A DNA stretch of 64,000 nt, taken from assembly GCA_035288845.1 (NCBI GenBank), contig DATDZB010000009.1:8814-72813 (forward strand). The letters are read 5' to 3'. The notes beneath the pieces were generated by a model, which saw only the letters and a program-made list of their open reading frames with translations, was not told the origin of the DNA and did no database searches. This DNA comes from Candidatus Nanoarchaeia archaeon (GTDB taxonomy: Archaea; Nanobdellota; Nanobdellia; SCGC-AAA011-G17; GW2011-AR18). Positions 28,900-62,395 of the stretch are shown here, one piece after another; positions within the stretch are counted from its first letter, which is position 1; every line of letters starts with the position of its first letter. The position numbers and the translations under genes were made by a program.

Positions 28900-29054
28900 C
28901 GCCAAGGGTGGGAGTTTCATTCATTAAGAGGTTCATCCAATCTTCATGAAACTGCTCTCAATAGTTTTTGAACCCACAAGTCCGTGAGGACGCAGGATAA
29001 TTGCAAACTATTGATATAGCAATCCTGTGCCATACCAGGTTAGGCGACCTTGGC
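28900..29054 (-). tRNA. tRNA-Ser(GCU) with two introns (37/38 and 59/60)
   Basis: Hand fold: acceptor GCCAAGG/CCTTGGC, anticodon arm CAGGA-TTGCTA|A-TCCTG, long variable arm GTCC-TCAC-GGAC, T arm GTGGG-TTCAAA|T-CCCAC. Introns at 28999..29016 (18 nt) and 28914..28966 (53 nt), both with 4-bp helix plus 3-nt bulge (BHB) geometry. Mature length 84 nt. Confidence 0.8.
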
Positions 29055-48157: not shown

Positions 48158-49648
48158 TTAAGCTACTCCCTTCATTCCTAAACTTTCTAATGATTTTTTT
48201 AATTTATCTTCTTGAACATTTCCCATTGAAATACTAGCTAATATTGCAAGATTTTTTCTTAAACCAATTGGAGTTCCTTCTGGAGTTTCAATTGGACATA
48301 ATCTTCCCCAGTGTGTAGGATGTAATGCTCTTGCTTCAAAATTTTCTTGTGTGCTTGTTAATAATGAAGCAACTCTTTGTAGATGCGAGTATGTAGCAAG
48401 TGTATTTGCTCTATCAATATTCTGACTAATACCTTTTCTTCCGCCTGTCCAAGTACCCGTAGCTAAAGCACTTTTAATATTTGAACTTAATAATTCATCT
48501 CTAATAATTATTTTTATACTTTGGAATTTTCCCCTCTTAACTAATCTTTGGAAATTATATAAAATATCTTGAACTAAAGTTCTTAAATTTACTCTCATTA
48601 AATCTTCTAATAAATCTCCGCTTAATTTTAATCTTTTATTCATATAATGATCTTTGTCTGGTAATGGCATTCCTTCTTCGCTAACTTGTAAAAATCTTTT
48701 TGCCATCTTACATAAGTTATAAGCTTTAGACATTCTATTTGAAGATTCAGTTCCTAAATGTGGAAGTAAATATTTATCTAATTGTTCTCTGCCTCTTTCT
48801 AATTTAATTTCTTTAGCTTGTGTAACTCCAATTTTTTTAGCTAAATATTCTAATGCATCTTCTTCTGTTTTCAATTCAGCTGCATCATATAAATTAATGA
48901 AAATTGAATCATAAACTTTTTCTCCGCATATCATCTTAACGATTTCTTGATCTTTAACCATTCCTAATCCCTTTAATACTGGAACTAAAGGAACTCTTCT
49001 AAATCTTGTAAATGTTAAATAAAATAAACCATCTTTCATTTGTTCCAATGTATGTGGTATTCTATAACTTCCCATTTCAGAAAATACTTTAGCTACATAT
49101 TCACTAGGACCAATTTCTTTATTTTCTATAAAAAATCTATTTGAAGCTAAATCTTCAACAGTAATCATTACTCTTTCATTTCCATTAATAATAAAATAAC
49201 CGCCAACTTCATCTGGATCTTCACCTTTGGAAATTAATTCATCTTTTTTTAATCCATTTAAATGACAATATTTAGATTTAAGCATAATTGGTATTTTACC
49301 AATCATAGTAGTAAAACTTTCTCTTTGAACTTCATCTACATAAGCACTAACTTCTAGATATATTGGAGCAGCATAAGTTAAAGCTCTTAATCTTGCTTCA
49401 CTAGGATAAACTTCTCTTTTACTTCCATCTGCTTCTATAATATTTGGTTTTTCTATCCAAATTTTTTTAAGTTTAATAACAAAACTTTCTACTTCTTGAG
49501 GAATAATTGTTGGACTAATATCACCAACTTCATCAACTAATAATTGTAACCTTCTTTCAATAAAATCATTAAAGCTTTGAATATTTGCTTCTACAAAAGG
49601 ATAATCTTTAAAATAACTTTGAATTAAATCTTGATAATTTTTAACCAT
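48158..49648 (-). CDS. rpoB2: DNA-directed RNA polymerase subunit B'' (N-terminal part of B)
   Basis: 'GGYFIINGNERV' and 'HPTHWGRLCPIETPEG'. Confidence 0.97.
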   Translation of the reverse strand: MVKNYQDLIQSYFKDYPFVEANIQSFNDFIERRLQLLVDEVGDISPTIIPQEVESFVIKLKKIWIEKPNIIEADGSKREVYPSEARLRALTYAAPIYLEVSAYVDEVQRESFTTMIGKIPIMLKSKYCHLNGLKKDELISKGEDPDEVGGYFIINGNERVMITVEDLASNRFFIENKEIGPSEYVAKVFSEMGSYRIPHTLEQMKDGLFYLTFTRFRRVPLVPVLKGLGMVKDQEIVKMICGEKVYDSIFINLYDAAELKTEEDALEYLAKKIGVTQAKEIKLERGREQLDKYLLPHLGTESSNRMSKAYNLCKMAKRFLQVSEEGMPLPDKDHYMNKRLKLSGDLLEDLMRVNLRTLVQDILYNFQRLVKRGKFQSIKIIIRDELLSSNIKSALATGTWTGGRKGISQNIDRANTLATYSHLQRVASLLTSTQENFEARALHPTHWGRLCPIETPEGTPIGLRKNLAILASISMGNVQEDKLKKSLESLGMKGVA

Positions 49649-49883
49649 CTACAACCACCCTGTAATAACTGGCTTCTCTTGTAATGTGGCTTCTTCTTTT
49701 AATTAAAATAATATCTCCAATTTTAACACTCATTGTAACTAAAGCAGGATCACTAATAGGAATCATTGGTAATTGTTTAGAAATCAAATTATGATTAGCA
49801 AGAAGTTTTTGTTTTTCTTCATCACTAATTTTAATATGTTCCGGAACCAAAAAATGTTTAATTTGTTTTGTCTCTTCACTCAT
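49641..49883 (-). CDS. rpoH: DNA-directed RNA polymerase subunit H
   Basis: Start moved to the ATG at 49883 ('MSEETKQIKHFLVPEH...'). The longer track ORF would overlap tRNA-Lys. 'QLPMIPISDPA' and 'GDIILIKRRSHITREASYYRVVV'. Confidence 0.9.
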   Translation of the reverse strand: MSEETKQIKHFLVPEHIKISDEEKQKLLANHNLISKQLPMIPISDPALVTMSVKIGDIILIKRRSHITREASYYRVVVDG

Positions 49884-49910
49884 TTTATGTGTTTCACCTT
49901 TGATCTTGAA

Positions 49911-50069
49911 TGGGCTGGATGGGAAATACACAGATTAAGTAAAACCTATATCTGTTTTGAACCCACGACCACCTGCTGTCCTCAACTTGTGTAAAAGGTT
50001 CACCAATCACTTTTGAAAAATTTTCTCAAAAGTTTATTCAGGTGCTCTACCAAGCTGAGCTACCAGCCC
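49911..50069 (-). tRNA. tRNA-Lys(UUU) with three introns (30/31, 37/38, 59/60)
   Basis: Hand fold: acceptor GGGCTGG/CCAGCCC, D arm GCTC-AGCTTGGTA-GAGC, anticodon arm CCTG|C-CTTTTA|A-GCAGG, T arm GTGGG-TTCAAA|T-CCCAT. Introns at 49999..50038 (40 nt), 49978..49991 (14 nt) and 49925..49955 (31 nt). Each junction falls in a 3-nt bulge flanking a 4-bp helix. Mature length 74 nt. Confidence 0.8.
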
Positions 50070-50288
50070 TTTCTTAGCATAATACTATCTAATAGCAAGT
50101 TTAAACCTATGAAAAGTTATATATCTGGCTGTTAGAAAGTATCATAAATTCAGAAACATCGATCCCCTATATAAAACTTGCGCTTTCTACTTATATTTAA
50201 GTTTTTATCTTCCATAGAAAATAATATCATAATAAATTAAATCTAAAATTTAATTAAACTTAAAAATTTTTGCTTATAAGAAAATAAT

Positions 50289-52310: not shown

Positions 52311-52320
52311 CAACGAGGTT
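52311..52320 (-). promoter_or_regulatory. candidate TATA box for tRNA-Asp precursor
   Basis: 'TTTATAAATA' lies about 21-30 nt upstream of 52290, overlapping the LAGLIDADG stop codon. Confidence 0.3.
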
Positions 52321-53021
52321 TATTTATAAAACTTTTTATTCAATAAATCCAATCTTTGGGAATAAGACATCTTAGGAGGATAATAACCTATTTTTCTCCA
52401 AATCTCAATCTTCGTAGTATGTTTTGGATTACTAAAACCAATATGTTTCAACCATATATTTAGGTTGTCTTTACCACAAATATCTATCTGATATTCAATA
52501 TATAATTTACCATTGAAAGTTTTTTTAACTTTATAAATAGAAGAAGTTATACTAAATTTAGTTAAATATTTTTTTAGTTGATAAACAAAATTCATATTAG
52601 AAAATGATGCAGTAATAACAGGATAAGAATGGTATTTTCTACTTTTCTTTTTAAAAGTTACACTAAAATCAGTATCTGCAACTCCTTTTAAAAATTTAGA
52701 TATAAACTTAGAATTTTTATTTATAAAATCAGGTATTATCATAACTTTAGGACCACTAGGTAAGCCTAGTGAATTAAGTTTTCTTACAATATATTTAGAA
52801 TAAGTAGCAAGTGCTATTGCTTTTTTATTCTTATGGTACCATAAAGATAAGTTAATATTAAATTTATTATAAAACAAAGGCTTAACGTAATTAGTCAAAT
52901 ATTCAAAGTCTTCATGTTTATGGCCTGTAATAACAACCCTATATGTGCCATTATTTTCATAAATATTTCCATCTCCTAAAATTATACCAATTAACTCAGC
53001 AAAATTAGCATCACAAAACAT
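52320..53021 (-). CDS. free-standing LAGLIDADG homing endonuclease (two-motif, monomeric type)
   Basis: 'FAELIGIILGDGNIY' and 'FLKGVADTDFS' are spaced about 100 aa apart. Confidence 0.85.
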   Translation of the reverse strand: MFCDANFAELIGIILGDGNIYENNGTYRVVITGHKHEDFEYLTNYVKPLFYNKFNINLSLWYHKNKKAIALATYSKYIVRKLNSLGLPSGPKVMIIPDFINKNSKFISKFLKGVADTDFSVTFKKKSRKYHSYPVITASFSNMNFVYQLKKYLTKFSITSSIYKVKKTFNGKLYIEYQIDICGKDNLNIWLKHIGFSNPKHTTKIEIWRKIGYYPPKMSYSQRLDLLNKKFYK

Positions 53022-53220: not shown

Positions 53221-53351
53221 TCCCTGCTGCCAGATTCGAACCAGCAACCTCACGGGATCAGCTGTCTGTTTTTCATTTCCAGCAATTAAAGCATTAGATC
53301 AAACAGTGAATTAATCTACAGCCGTGTGCTCTACCATTGAGCTAAGCAGGG
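53221..53351 (-). tRNA. tRNA-Tyr(GUA) with one roughly 59-nt anticodon-loop intron
   Basis: Acceptor CCCTGCT/AGCAGGG (C1-G72, the archaeal/eukaryal Tyr identity pair), anticodon arm CACGG-CTGTAG...-CCGTG, T arm GCTGG-TTCGAAT-CTGGC. The exact junction (37/38 or 38/39) is not resolved by hand. Confidence 0.8.
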
Positions 53352-60037: not shown

Positions 60038-60748
60038 ATGGGACTTAAAATATATAACACTTTAACAAGAAAAATAGAAAATTTTAAACCATTAAAAGAT
60101 AAAGAAGTAAAATTATTTGTATGTGGTCCTACTGTTTATGATTTTATTCATATTGGAAATGCAAAAACATTTGTTCAATTTGATATTATAGTTAAATACC
60201 TAAGGTATAGAGGTTACAAGGTATTTTACATTCAAAACATTACAGATATAGATGATAAAATAATAAAAAAAGCTAATGAAGAAAAAGTAGATTGGAAAGT
60301 AATTTCTAGTAAATACGAAAAAGCTTTTTTAGAAGATGTAAAAAGTCTAGGAATAACTTCAGTAGATAAATTTCCAAGAGCAACAGATTACATAAAAGAA
60401 ATAGTTTCTCAAGTTAAAAGACTAATTGAAAAAGGGTTTGCTTATAAAATTTCTGATGGTTATTATTTTGACCTTTCTAAATTTAAAGAATATGGAAAAT
60501 TAGCAAAAAGAACAACTGCTGAAGGAGAAGATGCAGTTTCTAGAGTTGATGAAAATACTGAAAAAAGAAATAAAGGTGATTTCTGTTTATTAAAGTTTAG
60601 TAAAGAAGGGGAACCTTTTTGGGAAGATGTTTTAGAGTTGGAAGTTTCAAATGAAGAATACGAAAGGAGGGTTAAAGAAGCTATTGAGAAAGACGATAAA
60701 GAATTTTTAAAGTTAAATAATATAAATAAAACAAAATGGAAAAAATAA
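60038..60748 (+). CDS. cysS: cysteinyl-tRNA synthetase, N-terminal piece
   Basis: 'CGPTVYDFIHIGNAKT' (HIGH) and 'KRNKGDFCLLKFSKEGEPFWE', followed by about 35 aa of unrelated K/E-rich tail and a stop. Confidence 0.9.
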   Translation: MGLKIYNTLTRKIENFKPLKDKEVKLFVCGPTVYDFIHIGNAKTFVQFDIIVKYLRYRGYKVFYIQNITDIDDKIIKKANEEKVDWKVISSKYEKAFLEDVKSLGITSVDKFPRATDYIKEIVSQVKRLIEKGFAYKISDGYYFDLSKFKEYGKLAKRTTAEGEDAVSRVDENTEKRNKGDFCLLKFSKEGEPFWEDVLELEVSNEEYERRVKEAIEKDDKEFLKLNNINKTKWKK

Positions 60749-61609
60749 TGTTATGTAATGGTGGATGTGGAAACAAAGCCAAATATAGCGGCTGGTGTGA
60801 AATAAGATGGAGAAAAGAAAATAGAATTAGTGTTAAATGTCCGAAAGCTGAAGAAAAGAGAGGAAAAGCAATTTCAAAATATAGAATAAAAGAATCAAAA
60901 CTTGGTCTTAATCCAATGCAAAATCCACTAATATGTAAAAAAAATCATTCTATAGAAAGAAACAAAAAAGCTTCAGAATCATTAAAAAAGTTAGGAGAAC
61001 TAAAACTTTTACCTCAACAAATAGAAAGTAAATATAAAAGCAGATTAAGGTTATTAAGAATTAGAAAAGCTTTACAAAAACTTGCAGCTGAAGGAAAGTT
61101 AAATCATCAAATTGAATCATTAGAAGAAAAAAAATTACGTCATAAGAAAATATCTGAAACTGTAAAAGAATTACATGCAAAAGGAATTTATAAAAATAAC
61201 ATTCCAAAAAAAATAAAATATAAATCAAAAGTTAATGGAAAGATATACTTGCGGTCTAAATGGGAATTAGATGTTGCAAAATTTCTTGACAAGAATAATA
61301 TTTCATGGTTATACGAGCCATTTCCAGTTCCTTATTTAGACAATAATAAAGAAAAACATGTTACAATACCTGATTTTTATTTGCCAAAATATAATCTAAT
61401 TATAGAAGTTAAAGGACTAAGAAAGGATTTTATTAGTAGTTATACAATTAACAATAAAATAGAAGGAATTAAAAAAGCAGGGTTTAAGTTTTATTTATGG
61501 ATGGAAAAAGAAATTCAAATGATAAGAAAGAATAATACTAATTTATTATTAAATAGTATTAAAATCCTGGAGAATAAAAACAATGCCTAAAATAAAAATT
61601 AAATTAAAA
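60629..61609 (+). mobile_element. homing-endonuclease gene insertion splitting cysS (approximate boundaries)
   Basis: CysRS similarity stops near 60628 (..FWED) and resumes near 61610 (..RPGWHIE). The boundaries are estimated from the E. coli CysRS sequence recalled from memory. Confidence 0.5.
60736..61590 (+). CDS. free-standing homing endonuclease: Cys-rich N-terminus + NUMOD3-like repeats + PD-(D/E)xK-like nuclease
   Basis: 'NHSIERNKKASESLKKLG' and 'LRHKKISETVKELHAKG' (NUMOD3-like). C-terminal 'RSKWELDVAKFLD...WLYEP...IPDFYLP...LIIEVKG'. Confidence 0.7.
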   Translation: MEKIMLCNGGCGNKAKYSGWCEIRWRKENRISVKCPKAEEKRGKAISKYRIKESKLGLNPMQNPLICKKNHSIERNKKASESLKKLGELKLLPQQIESKYKSRLRLLRIRKALQKLAAEGKLNHQIESLEEKKLRHKKISETVKELHAKGIYKNNIPKKIKYKSKVNGKIYLRSKWELDVAKFLDKNNISWLYEPFPVPYLDNNKEKHVTIPDFYLPKYNLIIEVKGLRKDFISSYTINNKIEGIKKAGFKFYLWMEKEIQMIRKNNTNLLLNSIKILENKNNA

Positions 61610-62395
61610 TTCAGACCAGGCTGGCACATCGAAGATACAGCAATAACAGAAACATTATTAGGTCAACAATATGATTTACATGGCGGAGCAATAGATTTAA
61701 TTTTTCCACATCATGAAGCAGAAATAGCACAAATGGAAGCAATATCTGGAAAAAAACCTTTTGTAAAATATTGGTTGCATACCGGTTTCTTACAAGTAAA
61801 CAAAGAAAGAATGGGTAAATCAAAAGGAAATTTCTCAAGAGCAAGAGAAGTATTAAAAGACTATAATAAAACAGCTTTAAGATTTTTATTTTCATCTACA
61901 CATTATAGAAAACCAATTGAGTTTTCAGATGAATCTTTAGAAACAGCAAAAAATAATGCAAATAAATTAAATGAATTTTTGTTGAAATTAAATAATTACA
62001 AATCAAAATCAAAAGATAATAAAGAAATTTCTAAATTAATAAAAGAAACTAAAAATAAATTTGAAGAAGAAATGGATAATGATTTTGAAACAGCAAATGC
62101 AATAACTTCAATATTTGATTTTACTAAAAAAATAAATAAATTAATTTCAAATAATGAAATTTCAGAAAAAGATTCTAAAAAAATAAAAGAATTTATGCAA
62201 GAAATAGATTCAATATTTGGAATTTTAGAAGAAGAGATAGACGTTCCAAAAGAAATAAAAGAATTAGCTGAAGAAAGAGAAAAAGCAAGGAAAAATAAAA
62301 ACTTCAAATTAGCAGATCAATTAAGAGAAGAAATAAAATCTAAAGGTTATTATATTGATGACACAGAAACTGGAATAATAATCAAGAAATTGTAA
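61583..62395 (+). CDS. cysS: cysteinyl-tRNA synthetase, C-terminal piece
   Basis: 'RPGWHIED', 'DLHGGAIDLIFPHHEAEIAQ', 'RMGKSKGNF' (KMSKS) and the C-terminal 'KNFKLADQLREEIKSKGYYIDD'. Confidence 0.9.
   Translation: MPKIKIKLKFRPGWHIEDTAITETLLGQQYDLHGGAIDLIFPHHEAEIAQMEAISGKKPFVKYWLHTGFLQVNKERMGKSKGNFSRAREVLKDYNKTALRFLFSSTHYRKPIEFSDESLETAKNNANKLNEFLLKLNNYKSKSKDNKEISKLIKETKNKFEEEMDNDFETANAITSIFDFTKKINKLISNNEISEKDSKKIKEFMQEIDSIFGILEEEIDVPKEIKELAEEREKARKNKNFKLADQLREEIKSKGYYIDDTETGIIIKKL

Follow-up and report, generated by a model that had tools for sequence, protein, structure and literature searches.

A tRNA-Lys(UUU) gene interrupted by three predicted bulge-helix-bulge introns in a DPANN archaeon

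Introduction

Can a stretch of 159 nucleotides that standard tRNA finders miss, and in which even the anticodon stem is broken, encode a working tRNA? This question is raised by a locus on the minus strand (50069..49911) of a 64,000-nucleotide stretch of contig DATDZB010000009.1 (assembly GCA_035288845.1), the whole of which is referred to below as the window. A sequence-only reading of the window had proposed that a 74-nt tRNA-Lys(UUU) emerges from this locus once three segments are removed. Our analysis of the gene and of its relatives makes it very probable that this is a functional gene, transcribed as a single RNA, from which three introns of the archaeal bulge-helix-bulge (BHB) type would be spliced by proteins at positions 30/31, 37/38 and 59/60. 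In line with established archaeal tRNA biology, the archaeal splicing endonuclease EndA would cut the precursor (pre-tRNA) at each BHB, an RtcB-type ligase would join the exons and CCA would be added afterwards by the CCA-adding enzyme.

Results

Three insertions divide an otherwise complete tRNA-Lys

The unspliced locus gives no ARAGORN call, and the Rfam tRNA model fails to match it even when thresholds are permissive. Removal of three insertions of 40, 14 and 31 nt leaves four exons (31, 7, 22 and 14 nt) which join into the 74-mer GGGCTGGTAGCTCAGCTTGGTAGAGCACCTGCCTTTTAAGCAGGTGGTCGTGGGTTCAAATCCCATCCAGCCCA, and this product is called by ARAGORN as tRNA-Lys(ttt) with a full cloverleaf, as the sequence-only reading had it. 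The mature molecule has a 7-bp acceptor stem, the D stem GCUC/GAGC, the anticodon arm CCUGC-CUUUUAA-GCAGG, the T arm GUGGG-UUCAAAU-CCCAU and an A as the discriminator. Its D loop contains one extra nucleotide (17a), so that physical position 31 corresponds to Sprinzl position 30 and the insertions fall at 30/31, 37/38 and 59/60. The gene and its parts are as follows.

49911..50069, minus strand: tRNA-Lys(UUU) gene, 159 nt, mature product 74 nt, CCA not encoded (ARAGORN on the spliced product)
50039..50069, minus strand: exon 1, GGGCTGGTAGCTCAGCTTGGTAGAGCACCTG, 31 nt, Sprinzl 1-30 (acceptor 5′ strand, D arm, 26, 27-30; from the segmentation)
49999..50038, minus strand: intron 1, aataaacttttgagaaaatttttcaaaagtgattggtgaa, 40 nt, interrupting the anticodon stem at 30/31 (BHB geometry, covariation)
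49992..49998, minus strand: exon 2, CCTTTTA, 7 nt, positions 31-37 including the anticodon UUU (from the segmentation)
49978..49991, minus strand: intron 2, cacaagttgaggac, 14 nt, at the canonical 37/38 site (BHB geometry)
49956..49977, minus strand: exon 3, AGCAGGTGGTCGTGGGTTCAAA, positions 38-59 (anticodon stem 3′ strand, variable loop, T stem 5′ strand, T loop to A59; from the segmentation)
49925..49955, minus strand: intron 3, acagatataggttttacttaatctgtgtatt, 31 nt, at 59/60 in the T loop, hBHBh′ type (BHB geometry, covariation)
49911..49924, minus strand: exon 4, TCCCATCCAGCCCA, positions 60-73 (T60, T stem 3′ strand, acceptor 3′ strand, discriminator A; from the segmentation)

The junctions were examined against the BHB layout, in which two 3-nt bulges, each cut after its second nucleotide, are separated by a 4-bp central helix (H). 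In intron 1, all four pairs of H form between exon positions 25-28, CACC (50041-50044), and the intron sequence GGUG (50001-50004), with bulges UGA and AAC. The outer helix (h, 4 bp) joins two exon segments, 21-24 AGAG and 32-35 CUUU, while the inner helix (h′) consists of one A-U pair, followed by an internal loop and a 7-bp hairpin (CUUUUGA/UCAAAAG). Intron 2 pairs CUUU with GAGG (4/4, including two G-U pairs) and has bulges UAC and ACA; its h is the anticodon stem, which is complete only once intron 1 has been removed, there is no h′, and the 7-nt loop is that of a mini-intron. Intron 3 adopts a relaxed form of the motif, in which UUCA faces UGUA with three of four pairs and a U55-U mismatch, next to bulges AAA and UUU. 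Its flanks are strict, with the 5-bp T stem as h and CAGAU/AUCUG, also 5 bp, as h′. The positions, lengths, helices, bulges and hairpins which had been read from the sequence were reproduced for all three introns, and every predicted cut does lie two nucleotides into a 3-nt bulge. Sliding any junction, in any of the introns, alters the product. The bulges and 4-bp helices, the cleavage products, the flanking helices (strict or relaxed) and the covariation described below are all those of archaeal BHB introns.

Exon 2 is only 7 nt long, and over-fitting could be suspected. Intron 1, exon 2 and intron 2 might instead make up one long intron, or the insertions might be of group I or II, with the anticodon loop formed differently; the sequence-only reading had itself allowed for a better fold with fewer introns. 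Such a fold fails, since merging the three segments removes the CUUUUAA anticodon loop, leaving neither a 7-nt loop with U33 nor a Lys anticodon (the alternative loop is GAGGACA). Moreover, either insertion is found alone in relatives beside the same 7-nt CYUUUUA: at 30/31 only in loci L019, L042, L048 and L077, and at 37/38 only in L025, L041 and L045. Self-splicing group I and group II introns exceed about 200 nt and contain a catalytic core, whereas the insertions here (14-40 nt) are far too short, and no Rfam intron match was found at the locus. We give this explanation next to no credence. A split, trans-spliced gene of the Nanoarchaeum equitans type has its halves at separate loci, with their own promoters and a complementary leader and trailer; here all four exons lie inside 159 contiguous nt on one strand.

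Orthologous genes carry the same introns or none

Relatives were drawn from the 80 best genomic matches to RpoB'', the product of a gene near the locus. All are metagenome-assembled genomes of Candidatus Woesearchaeota / Nanoarchaeia (DPANN), at 61-89% identity, and by this comparison the host is a Candidatus Woesearchaeota (DPANN) archaeon. Most of the loci fetched in this way have tRNA-Lys(UUU) directly upstream of rpoH. The genes were extracted by spliced alignment with a wildcard acceptor stem and validated with ARAGORN, and by a pattern-based extraction besides; an aligner with a fixed acceptor stem was dropped for its spurious distant introns where acceptor stems had diverged. Corrections by hand concerned L052, L057 and L062 (a 42-44-nt 30/31 intron plus a 13-nt 37/38 intron), L017, L018 and L037 (which have a 59/60 intron) and L049 and L072 (false positives of the regular expression).

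After removal of zero to three insertions at the same sites, 61 loci give an ARAGORN-valid tRNA-Lys(ttt), two of them (L001 and L002) being copies of the window. The insertion site is nearly always 30/31, 37/38 or 59/60, with 19/20 used in a few lineages. When the first two sites were scored in 70 loci, 32 had both introns, 18 only that at 37/38, 6 only that at 30/31 and 14 neither. Exon 1 is the same or almost the same in the orthologues, and exon 2 is joined directly to its neighbours where introns are lacking. The intronless genes (L016, L064, L072, L073, L040 and L049, with L024 and L026 after hand correction) include two, L016 and L064, which are collinear with the predicted spliced product and whose changes are compensated in stems. 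L016 differs from the predicted product of the window at five positions and by no insertion or deletion, and four of the five differences make up two compensated stem pairs (5:68 and 31:39). The intronless genes act as a natural cDNA for the splice prediction, and they match it; this speaks directly to the doubt raised in the sequence-only reading, that the mature tRNA might differ from the predicted splice product. Insertions at the same sites, together with collinear intronless orthologues, place the locus beyond chance as judged from sequence comparison.

In a neighbour-joining tree of RpoB'', the clade containing the window (L003-L008, L010, L011, L014) is entirely of the three-intron kind, with lengths of 23-52, 13-15 and 19-37 nt at the three sites in turn; the introns have diverged in both sequence and length while the arrangement has been kept. 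The same tree places the three-intron state in at least three further clades (L022/L033/L035, L066/L067 and L053/L061), which implies repeated gain and/or loss. An exon-encoded helix between 21-24 AGAG and 32-35 CUYU, inherent to tRNA-Lys, could explain the repeated hits at 30/31 in tRNA-Lys, those in the split tRNA-Lys genes of Nanoarchaeum and Staphylothermus included.

Across the relatives the 30/31 introns measure 14-134 nt, and those of L009 (108 nt), L066 (134 nt) and L067 (128 nt) are several times longer than the rest. In L070 and L075, an insertion of 20-21 nt in the D loop at 19/20, with H formed by GCCU/GGGC, represents a fourth site in the tRNA-Lys family. L023 carries, at about 2550-2737, a hybrid in which the 5′ part of a tRNA-Asp, as far as the T loop, is followed by a 32-nt insertion of the 59/60 type and a 3′ end of the tRNA-Lys type; its acceptor strands are mismatched, and either a deletion has fused the two neighbouring genes or the assembly is chimeric.

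Compensatory change in the BHB helices

At the 30/31 junctions (alignment A1, 37 loci), 95.6% of pair cells hold a standard pair, a share that falls to 31-56% once the 3′ partners are shifted by 1-3 columns, and H is 99% paired. The H pairs 27:n-4 and 28:n-5 switch between C-G, U-A and U-G in several separate clades, giving variants such as CACU/AGUG (L005, L022, L048) and CAUC/GAUG (L021, L066, L067, L077). The h′ pairs covary also, the first two of them passing through AU, GC, UA and CG. For the 59/60 junctions, alignment A2 brings together 31 introns from tRNA-Lys, tRNA-Asp and the tRNA-Ser of the window: 86.2% are paired compared with 31-50% after sliding, double changes occur in all five h′ pairs, and A57/G57 covaries with U/C. 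The covariation score observed at the 30/31 and 59/60 junctions was reached by none of 500 shuffles.

The 37/38 introns form all four pairs of H in 38 of 49 cases and three in the other 11, compared with 2.1-2.9 bp after sliding, in a set that had been pre-selected for at least three pairs; a scan of the geometry with no pair filter gave the same pattern. The 5′ strand of this H is invariant, so that only one-sided variation is possible, and its partner in the intron is RRRG in nearly all cases. The sequence comparisons indicate that the BHB helices at 30/31 and 59/60 are kept by compensatory change.

Mutually exclusive folds and a probable order of splicing

The first BHB (BHB-1) occupies nucleotides 21-28, which opens the D stem, and nucleotides 32-35, and is incompatible with the cloverleaf. 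BHB-2 requires nucleotides 32-35 and an intact anticodon stem, which is interrupted by intron 1. As they share nucleotides 32-35, BHB-1 and BHB-2 are mutually exclusive and the three BHBs can never all be present at once. It has been reported that one archaeal tRNA intron sometimes must leave before the next BHB can form (tRNAscan-SE 2.0 paper, PMC8450103).

At -62.1 kcal/mol (z = -6.8), the minimum free energy (MFE) fold of the full pre-tRNA includes the H helix of the 30/31 intron with its bulges. Enforcing BHB-1 in the canonical register of 3-nt bulges gives -60.7 kcal/mol, compared with -44.4 kcal/mol for the cloverleaf with BHB-2. From these energies and the exclusivity of the two motifs we infer that intron 1 leaves first. 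The most likely course, on the strength of the modelled folds, is that intron 1 would be removed from a conformer with an open D arm and intron 3 independently of it, likewise before refolding; the RNA would then refold to the cloverleaf and intron 2 would be removed last, from a canonical pre-tRNA. MFE folding is itself a poor detector of BHBs, with BHB-2 never and BHB-3 rarely appearing in MFE structures.

Several observations weigh against a functional three-intron gene spliced in this way. The 4-bp helix of BHB-3 contains the U55-U mismatch, while BHB-2 rests on its two G-U pairs and is absent from all MFE folds. After removal of intron 1 in silico, the cloverleaf with BHB-2 (-43.0 kcal/mol) is still less stable than a helix formed between the D arm and intron 2 (-49.1 kcal/mol; see below), which means that refolding would need tertiary or protein help. 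Neither EndA nor RtcB is among the products in the Pfam-annotated part of the window. Finally, the analysis covers a single contig of the genome, and a second, intact tRNA-Lys(UUU) gene could lie elsewhere.

This last point is what a decaying pseudogene would need: three insertions would have disabled the gene, which is indeed invisible to ARAGORN and Rfam when unspliced, with the functional copy sited elsewhere in the genome, and the hybrid in L023 shows that a gene of non-functional appearance can occupy the same position. The exon segments, however, are all intact and splice to a perfect cloverleaf, and the three insertions lie at exactly those sites that are competent to form a BHB. The arrangement is kept in about ten species-level relatives in which the intron sequences have diverged and the BHB pairs have been compensated, and the syntenic position and an upstream A/T box are retained. 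When metagenomes were scanned for the contiguous anticodon arm, only other organisms turned up, none with this acceptor stem. Decay is thus a very improbable explanation, and a functional tRNA-Lys(UUU) gene with three BHB introns remains strongly favoured.

Intron 2 is antisense to the D arm

Nucleotides 3-11 of intron 2, CAAGUUGAG (49981-49989), are antisense to nucleotides 11-18 of the D arm, CUCAGCUUG (50051-50059), both on the minus strand. The complementarity covers the D loop and the 5′ strand of the D stem, and 9 of the 14 nucleotides of intron 2 are paired in this way in the MFE fold. The pairing is continuous with one between 20-24 and 33-37, and the outer helix of BHB-1 lengthens from 4 to about 15 bp. 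An antisense stretch is present in most of the orthologous 37/38 introns, where it matches the local variant of the D loop. The following variants fall in separate clades.

D loop AGCUUGG: intron CCAAGCU or CAAGCUGA
D loop AGUUUGG: intron CCAAACU or AACUGAG
D loop AGCCUGGAUUAG: intron AAUCCAG
D loop AGCCUGGCUAG: intron AGCCA or CAGGCU
D loop AGCACGG: intron ACCGU

A strict measure of continuous helix length proved too sensitive to offsets of 1-2 nt, and RNAduplex energies were used. The mean energy between intron and D arm is -10.3 kcal/mol, compared with -5.9 kcal/mol for shuffled introns, and in 36 of 42 cases an intron's predicted binding to its own D arm is stronger than that to D arms from other classes (Wilcoxon 8e-7). 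Run length exceeds 95% of an intron's own shuffles in 15 of 44 cases.

What might this complementarity be for? One possible answer, which we put forward tentatively and as somewhat less likely than the alternative below, is that intron 2 acts as a folding helper: it would unzip the D stem and favour excision at 30/31 first, with refolding and then excision at 37/38 to follow. Modelled folds are consistent with such a role, in that enforcing BHB-1 in the absence of intron 2 costs 3 kcal/mol (-48.3 vs -51.4 kcal/mol for the MFE fold), whereas in its presence BHB-1 is practically the MFE fold. Likewise, BHB-1 appears in the MFE folds of L001, L011 and L033 only with intron 2 present, and less cleanly so in L003, where the 5′ bulge is partly closed.

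The alternative, to which we assign about an even chance, is that the introns leave in any order, each from its own BHB, and that the complementarity is a relic which plays no part in processing, left for example by a templated inverted duplication. This would agree with the antisense retained in genes which have no 30/31 intron (L041, L032 and L054) and with the MFE folds of L006, L007 and L014, in which the central helix of BHB-1 forms even without intron 2; both observations speak against a helper, as does the stability of the D-arm:intron-2 helix after intron 1 has gone. In addition, archaeal EndA is able to bind and stabilise BHBs that are not part of the MFE structure. Unlike a relic, on the other hand, the complementarity follows independent D-loop changes in separate clades, and in long 37/38 introns its place is invariably the 5′ end, where it runs on from the exon pairing between 20-24 and 33-37. 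It is also stronger where a 30/31 intron is present (mean z -2.08 vs -1.33, p = 0.015, with no phylogenetic correction) and weak or absent in a clade wholly lacking 30/31 introns (L025, L056, L068). The antisense relation between intron 2 and the D arm is not part of the sequence-only reading, and the literature searched contained no description of it, nor of one tRNA intron aiding the excision of another.

A second tRNA gene with a 59/60 intron

The window contains a tRNA-Ser(GCU) gene (29054..28900, minus strand) with an 18-nt intron at 37/38 (H UUGC/GCAA) and a 53-nt intron at 59/60 (H UUCA/UGAA). Unspliced, it matched neither ARAGORN nor Rfam at 28900-29054; spliced, it gives an ARAGORN-valid tRNA of 84 nt. 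This product bears out the sequence-only reading in that the 59/60 introns of tRNA-Ser and tRNA-Lys share exactly the same site and the context TTCAAA|..|T. The further suggestion that introns might have been transposed between the tRNAs finds no support for this pair: the local alignment score of the two 59/60 introns is 12, compared with 13.4 +/- 2.7 for shuffles, and at the shared site the two have no similarity beyond chance. In Woesearchaeota, 59/60 introns occur in tRNA-Lys, tRNA-Ser and tRNA-Asp.

Genomic context

The two features flanking the gene are as follows.

49641..49883, minus strand: rpoH, 80 aa, ATG at 49883, 27 nt 3′ of tRNA-Lys (gene calls on the same sequence, Pfam RNA_pol_Rpb5_C, tblastn in relatives)
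50099..50106, minus strand: TATA-like box GTTTAAAC, a putative promoter at -37..-30 from the mature 5′ end (read from the sequence)

It had been noted that the tRNA gene adjoins rpoH and that the long open reading frame (ORF) for the latter is over-extended. The gene calls agree on both counts, starting rpoH at the ATG at 49883, and the 96-aa frame with a GTG start (49641-49931) that overlaps the 3′ end of the tRNA is an artefact of ORF extension. The split rpoB genes come after rpoH. RpoB'' is encoded 260 nt downstream and is identical to genes on groundwater metagenome contigs in the JGI and ENA collections.

The TATA-like box would serve as the promoter, and the closest relatives have a comparable A/T box and an TTAGAGAG motif upstream of tRNA-Lys. 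A motif TTAGAKAG is conserved upstream of the tRNA, at about 15-25 nt from its 5′ end (50084-50092 in the window), and stands at the equivalent place in L003, L004, L006, L008, L009, L011, L013 and L014, preceded by a box resembling CATTGG-TTTAAA; together they may represent a lineage-specific promoter architecture. In many relatives (L017, L018, L027, L031, L054, L070, L077 and L080-L082), a tRNA-Asp(GUC) gene lies 3-10 nt upstream of tRNA-Lys (about 100-200 nt upstream), and the tandem is likely to be co-transcribed. This tRNA-Asp, which is missing from the window, often has a 59/60 intron of its own with the end ..UGAAAG|U.

Weak Rfam matches near the locus (HtrA thermometer, MIR396 and others; E at least 2.9) were taken as chance. 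A weak match to a C/D-box snoRNA family inside rpoH (49755-49830, minus strand; 24 bits, E = 0.16, far below the gathering threshold) lies in coding sequence and is probably also due to chance. Elsewhere in the window, a free-standing ORF resembling a LAGLIDADG_3 homing endonuclease (233 aa, 52320-53021, minus strand) is found 200 nt downstream of an intron-containing tRNA gene (53221-53351, minus strand; Rfam tRNA 51.8 bits, anticodon GUA by eye, intron of about 60 nt). Cysteinyl-tRNA synthetase is represented by three overlapping ORFs (236, 284 and 270 aa; 60038-62395, plus strand), of which the outer two match tRNA-synt_1e / DALR_2, with no Pfam match for the middle one; this pattern could be due to an insertion, to frameshifts or to an unusual split gene.

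Discussion

The elements of this gene have precedents. Positions 30/31 and 59/60 are published non-canonical sites of archaeal tRNA introns (PMC4090602), so that an intron within the anticodon stem is no novelty, and archaeal tRNAs with as many as three introns have been described (PMC8450103). DPANN lineages, including one Woesearchaeon, have more disrupted tRNAs and incomplete predicted tRNA sets, which suggest that disrupted genes have gone undetected (PMC5829648). Neither the three positions nor the maximum of three introns is therefore new to the literature, and the gene comes from a lineage in which genes of this kind were anticipated. DPANN genomes, one Woesearchaeon among them, are reported to have an EndA of the alpha4 type with an extra L3 loop (PMC5829648), and by analogy we expect the same of the host.

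The closest parallels are in the Thermoproteales (Pyrobaculum, Thermofilum and Caldivirga; Sugahara et al. 2008 as reviewed, PMC4033280, PMC4090602, PMC8450103), which likewise have up to three BHB introns per tRNA, non-canonical introns at 30/31 and 59/60, closely set introns needing prior removal, and genes missed by standard finders. Those organisms are hyperthermophilic crenarchaea with an (alpha-beta)2 endonuclease bearing the crenarchaeal loop, whereas the present host is an AT-rich DPANN archaeon (27.8% G+C in the window) of small genome with an EndA that is expected to be alpha4 with the L3 loop (PMC5829648). Moreover, the intron transposition of the Thermoproteales has no sign here, given the dissimilar 59/60 introns of tRNA-Lys and tRNA-Ser.

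The tRNA-Lys(CUU) that is split in Nanoarchaeum equitans and Staphylothermus (Randau 2005; Chan et al. 2011, PMC3218864) is broken at the same 30/31 site with an hBHBh′ junction, a likeness which is based on the published position. N. equitans is also a member of DPANN, and the tRNA belongs to the same Lys isoacceptor family. The split tRNA, however, is made from separate genes joined in trans, while the tRNA-Lys described here has the anticodon UUU and a cis intron in one transcript. ARMAN-1 and ARMAN-2 (Micrarchaeota; PMC3239211, PMC3488258), again within DPANN, have multi-intron tRNAs with non-canonical positions and an epsilon2 endonuclease of broadened specificity; they belong to a different phylum, and the architecture of the host EndA is probably different. 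The 59/60 site in the T loop, with a BHB on the T stem, is shared with the permuted tRNAs of Thermofilum pendens and with tRNAs of Cyanidioschyzon merolae (PMC3218864, PMC3728597); there the tRNA is joined or interrupted at 59/60, and here the site holds a simple cis intron.

For annotation, the immediate consequence is that standard tRNA finders miss the gene, the over-extended rpoH ORF being one result, and hidden genes with several introns probably account for the incomplete tRNA sets of DPANN archaea (PMC5829648). The tRNA-Lys/rpoH locus provides an unusually rich series: more than 60 orthologues, in which the three introns occur in every combination of presence and absence. This lets intron gain, loss and length change be dated and intron-late and intron-early views be compared, in a superphylum to which Nanoarchaeum, with its tRNA-Lys split at the same 30/31 site, also belongs. 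With BHBs that shut each other out and a covarying pairing of the D arm with intron 2, the gene also offers a concrete case in which the ordering of tRNA splicing by conformation can be tested. Were the helper role of intron 2 true, it would mean that one tRNA intron helps to excise another, with splicing forced into a fixed order.

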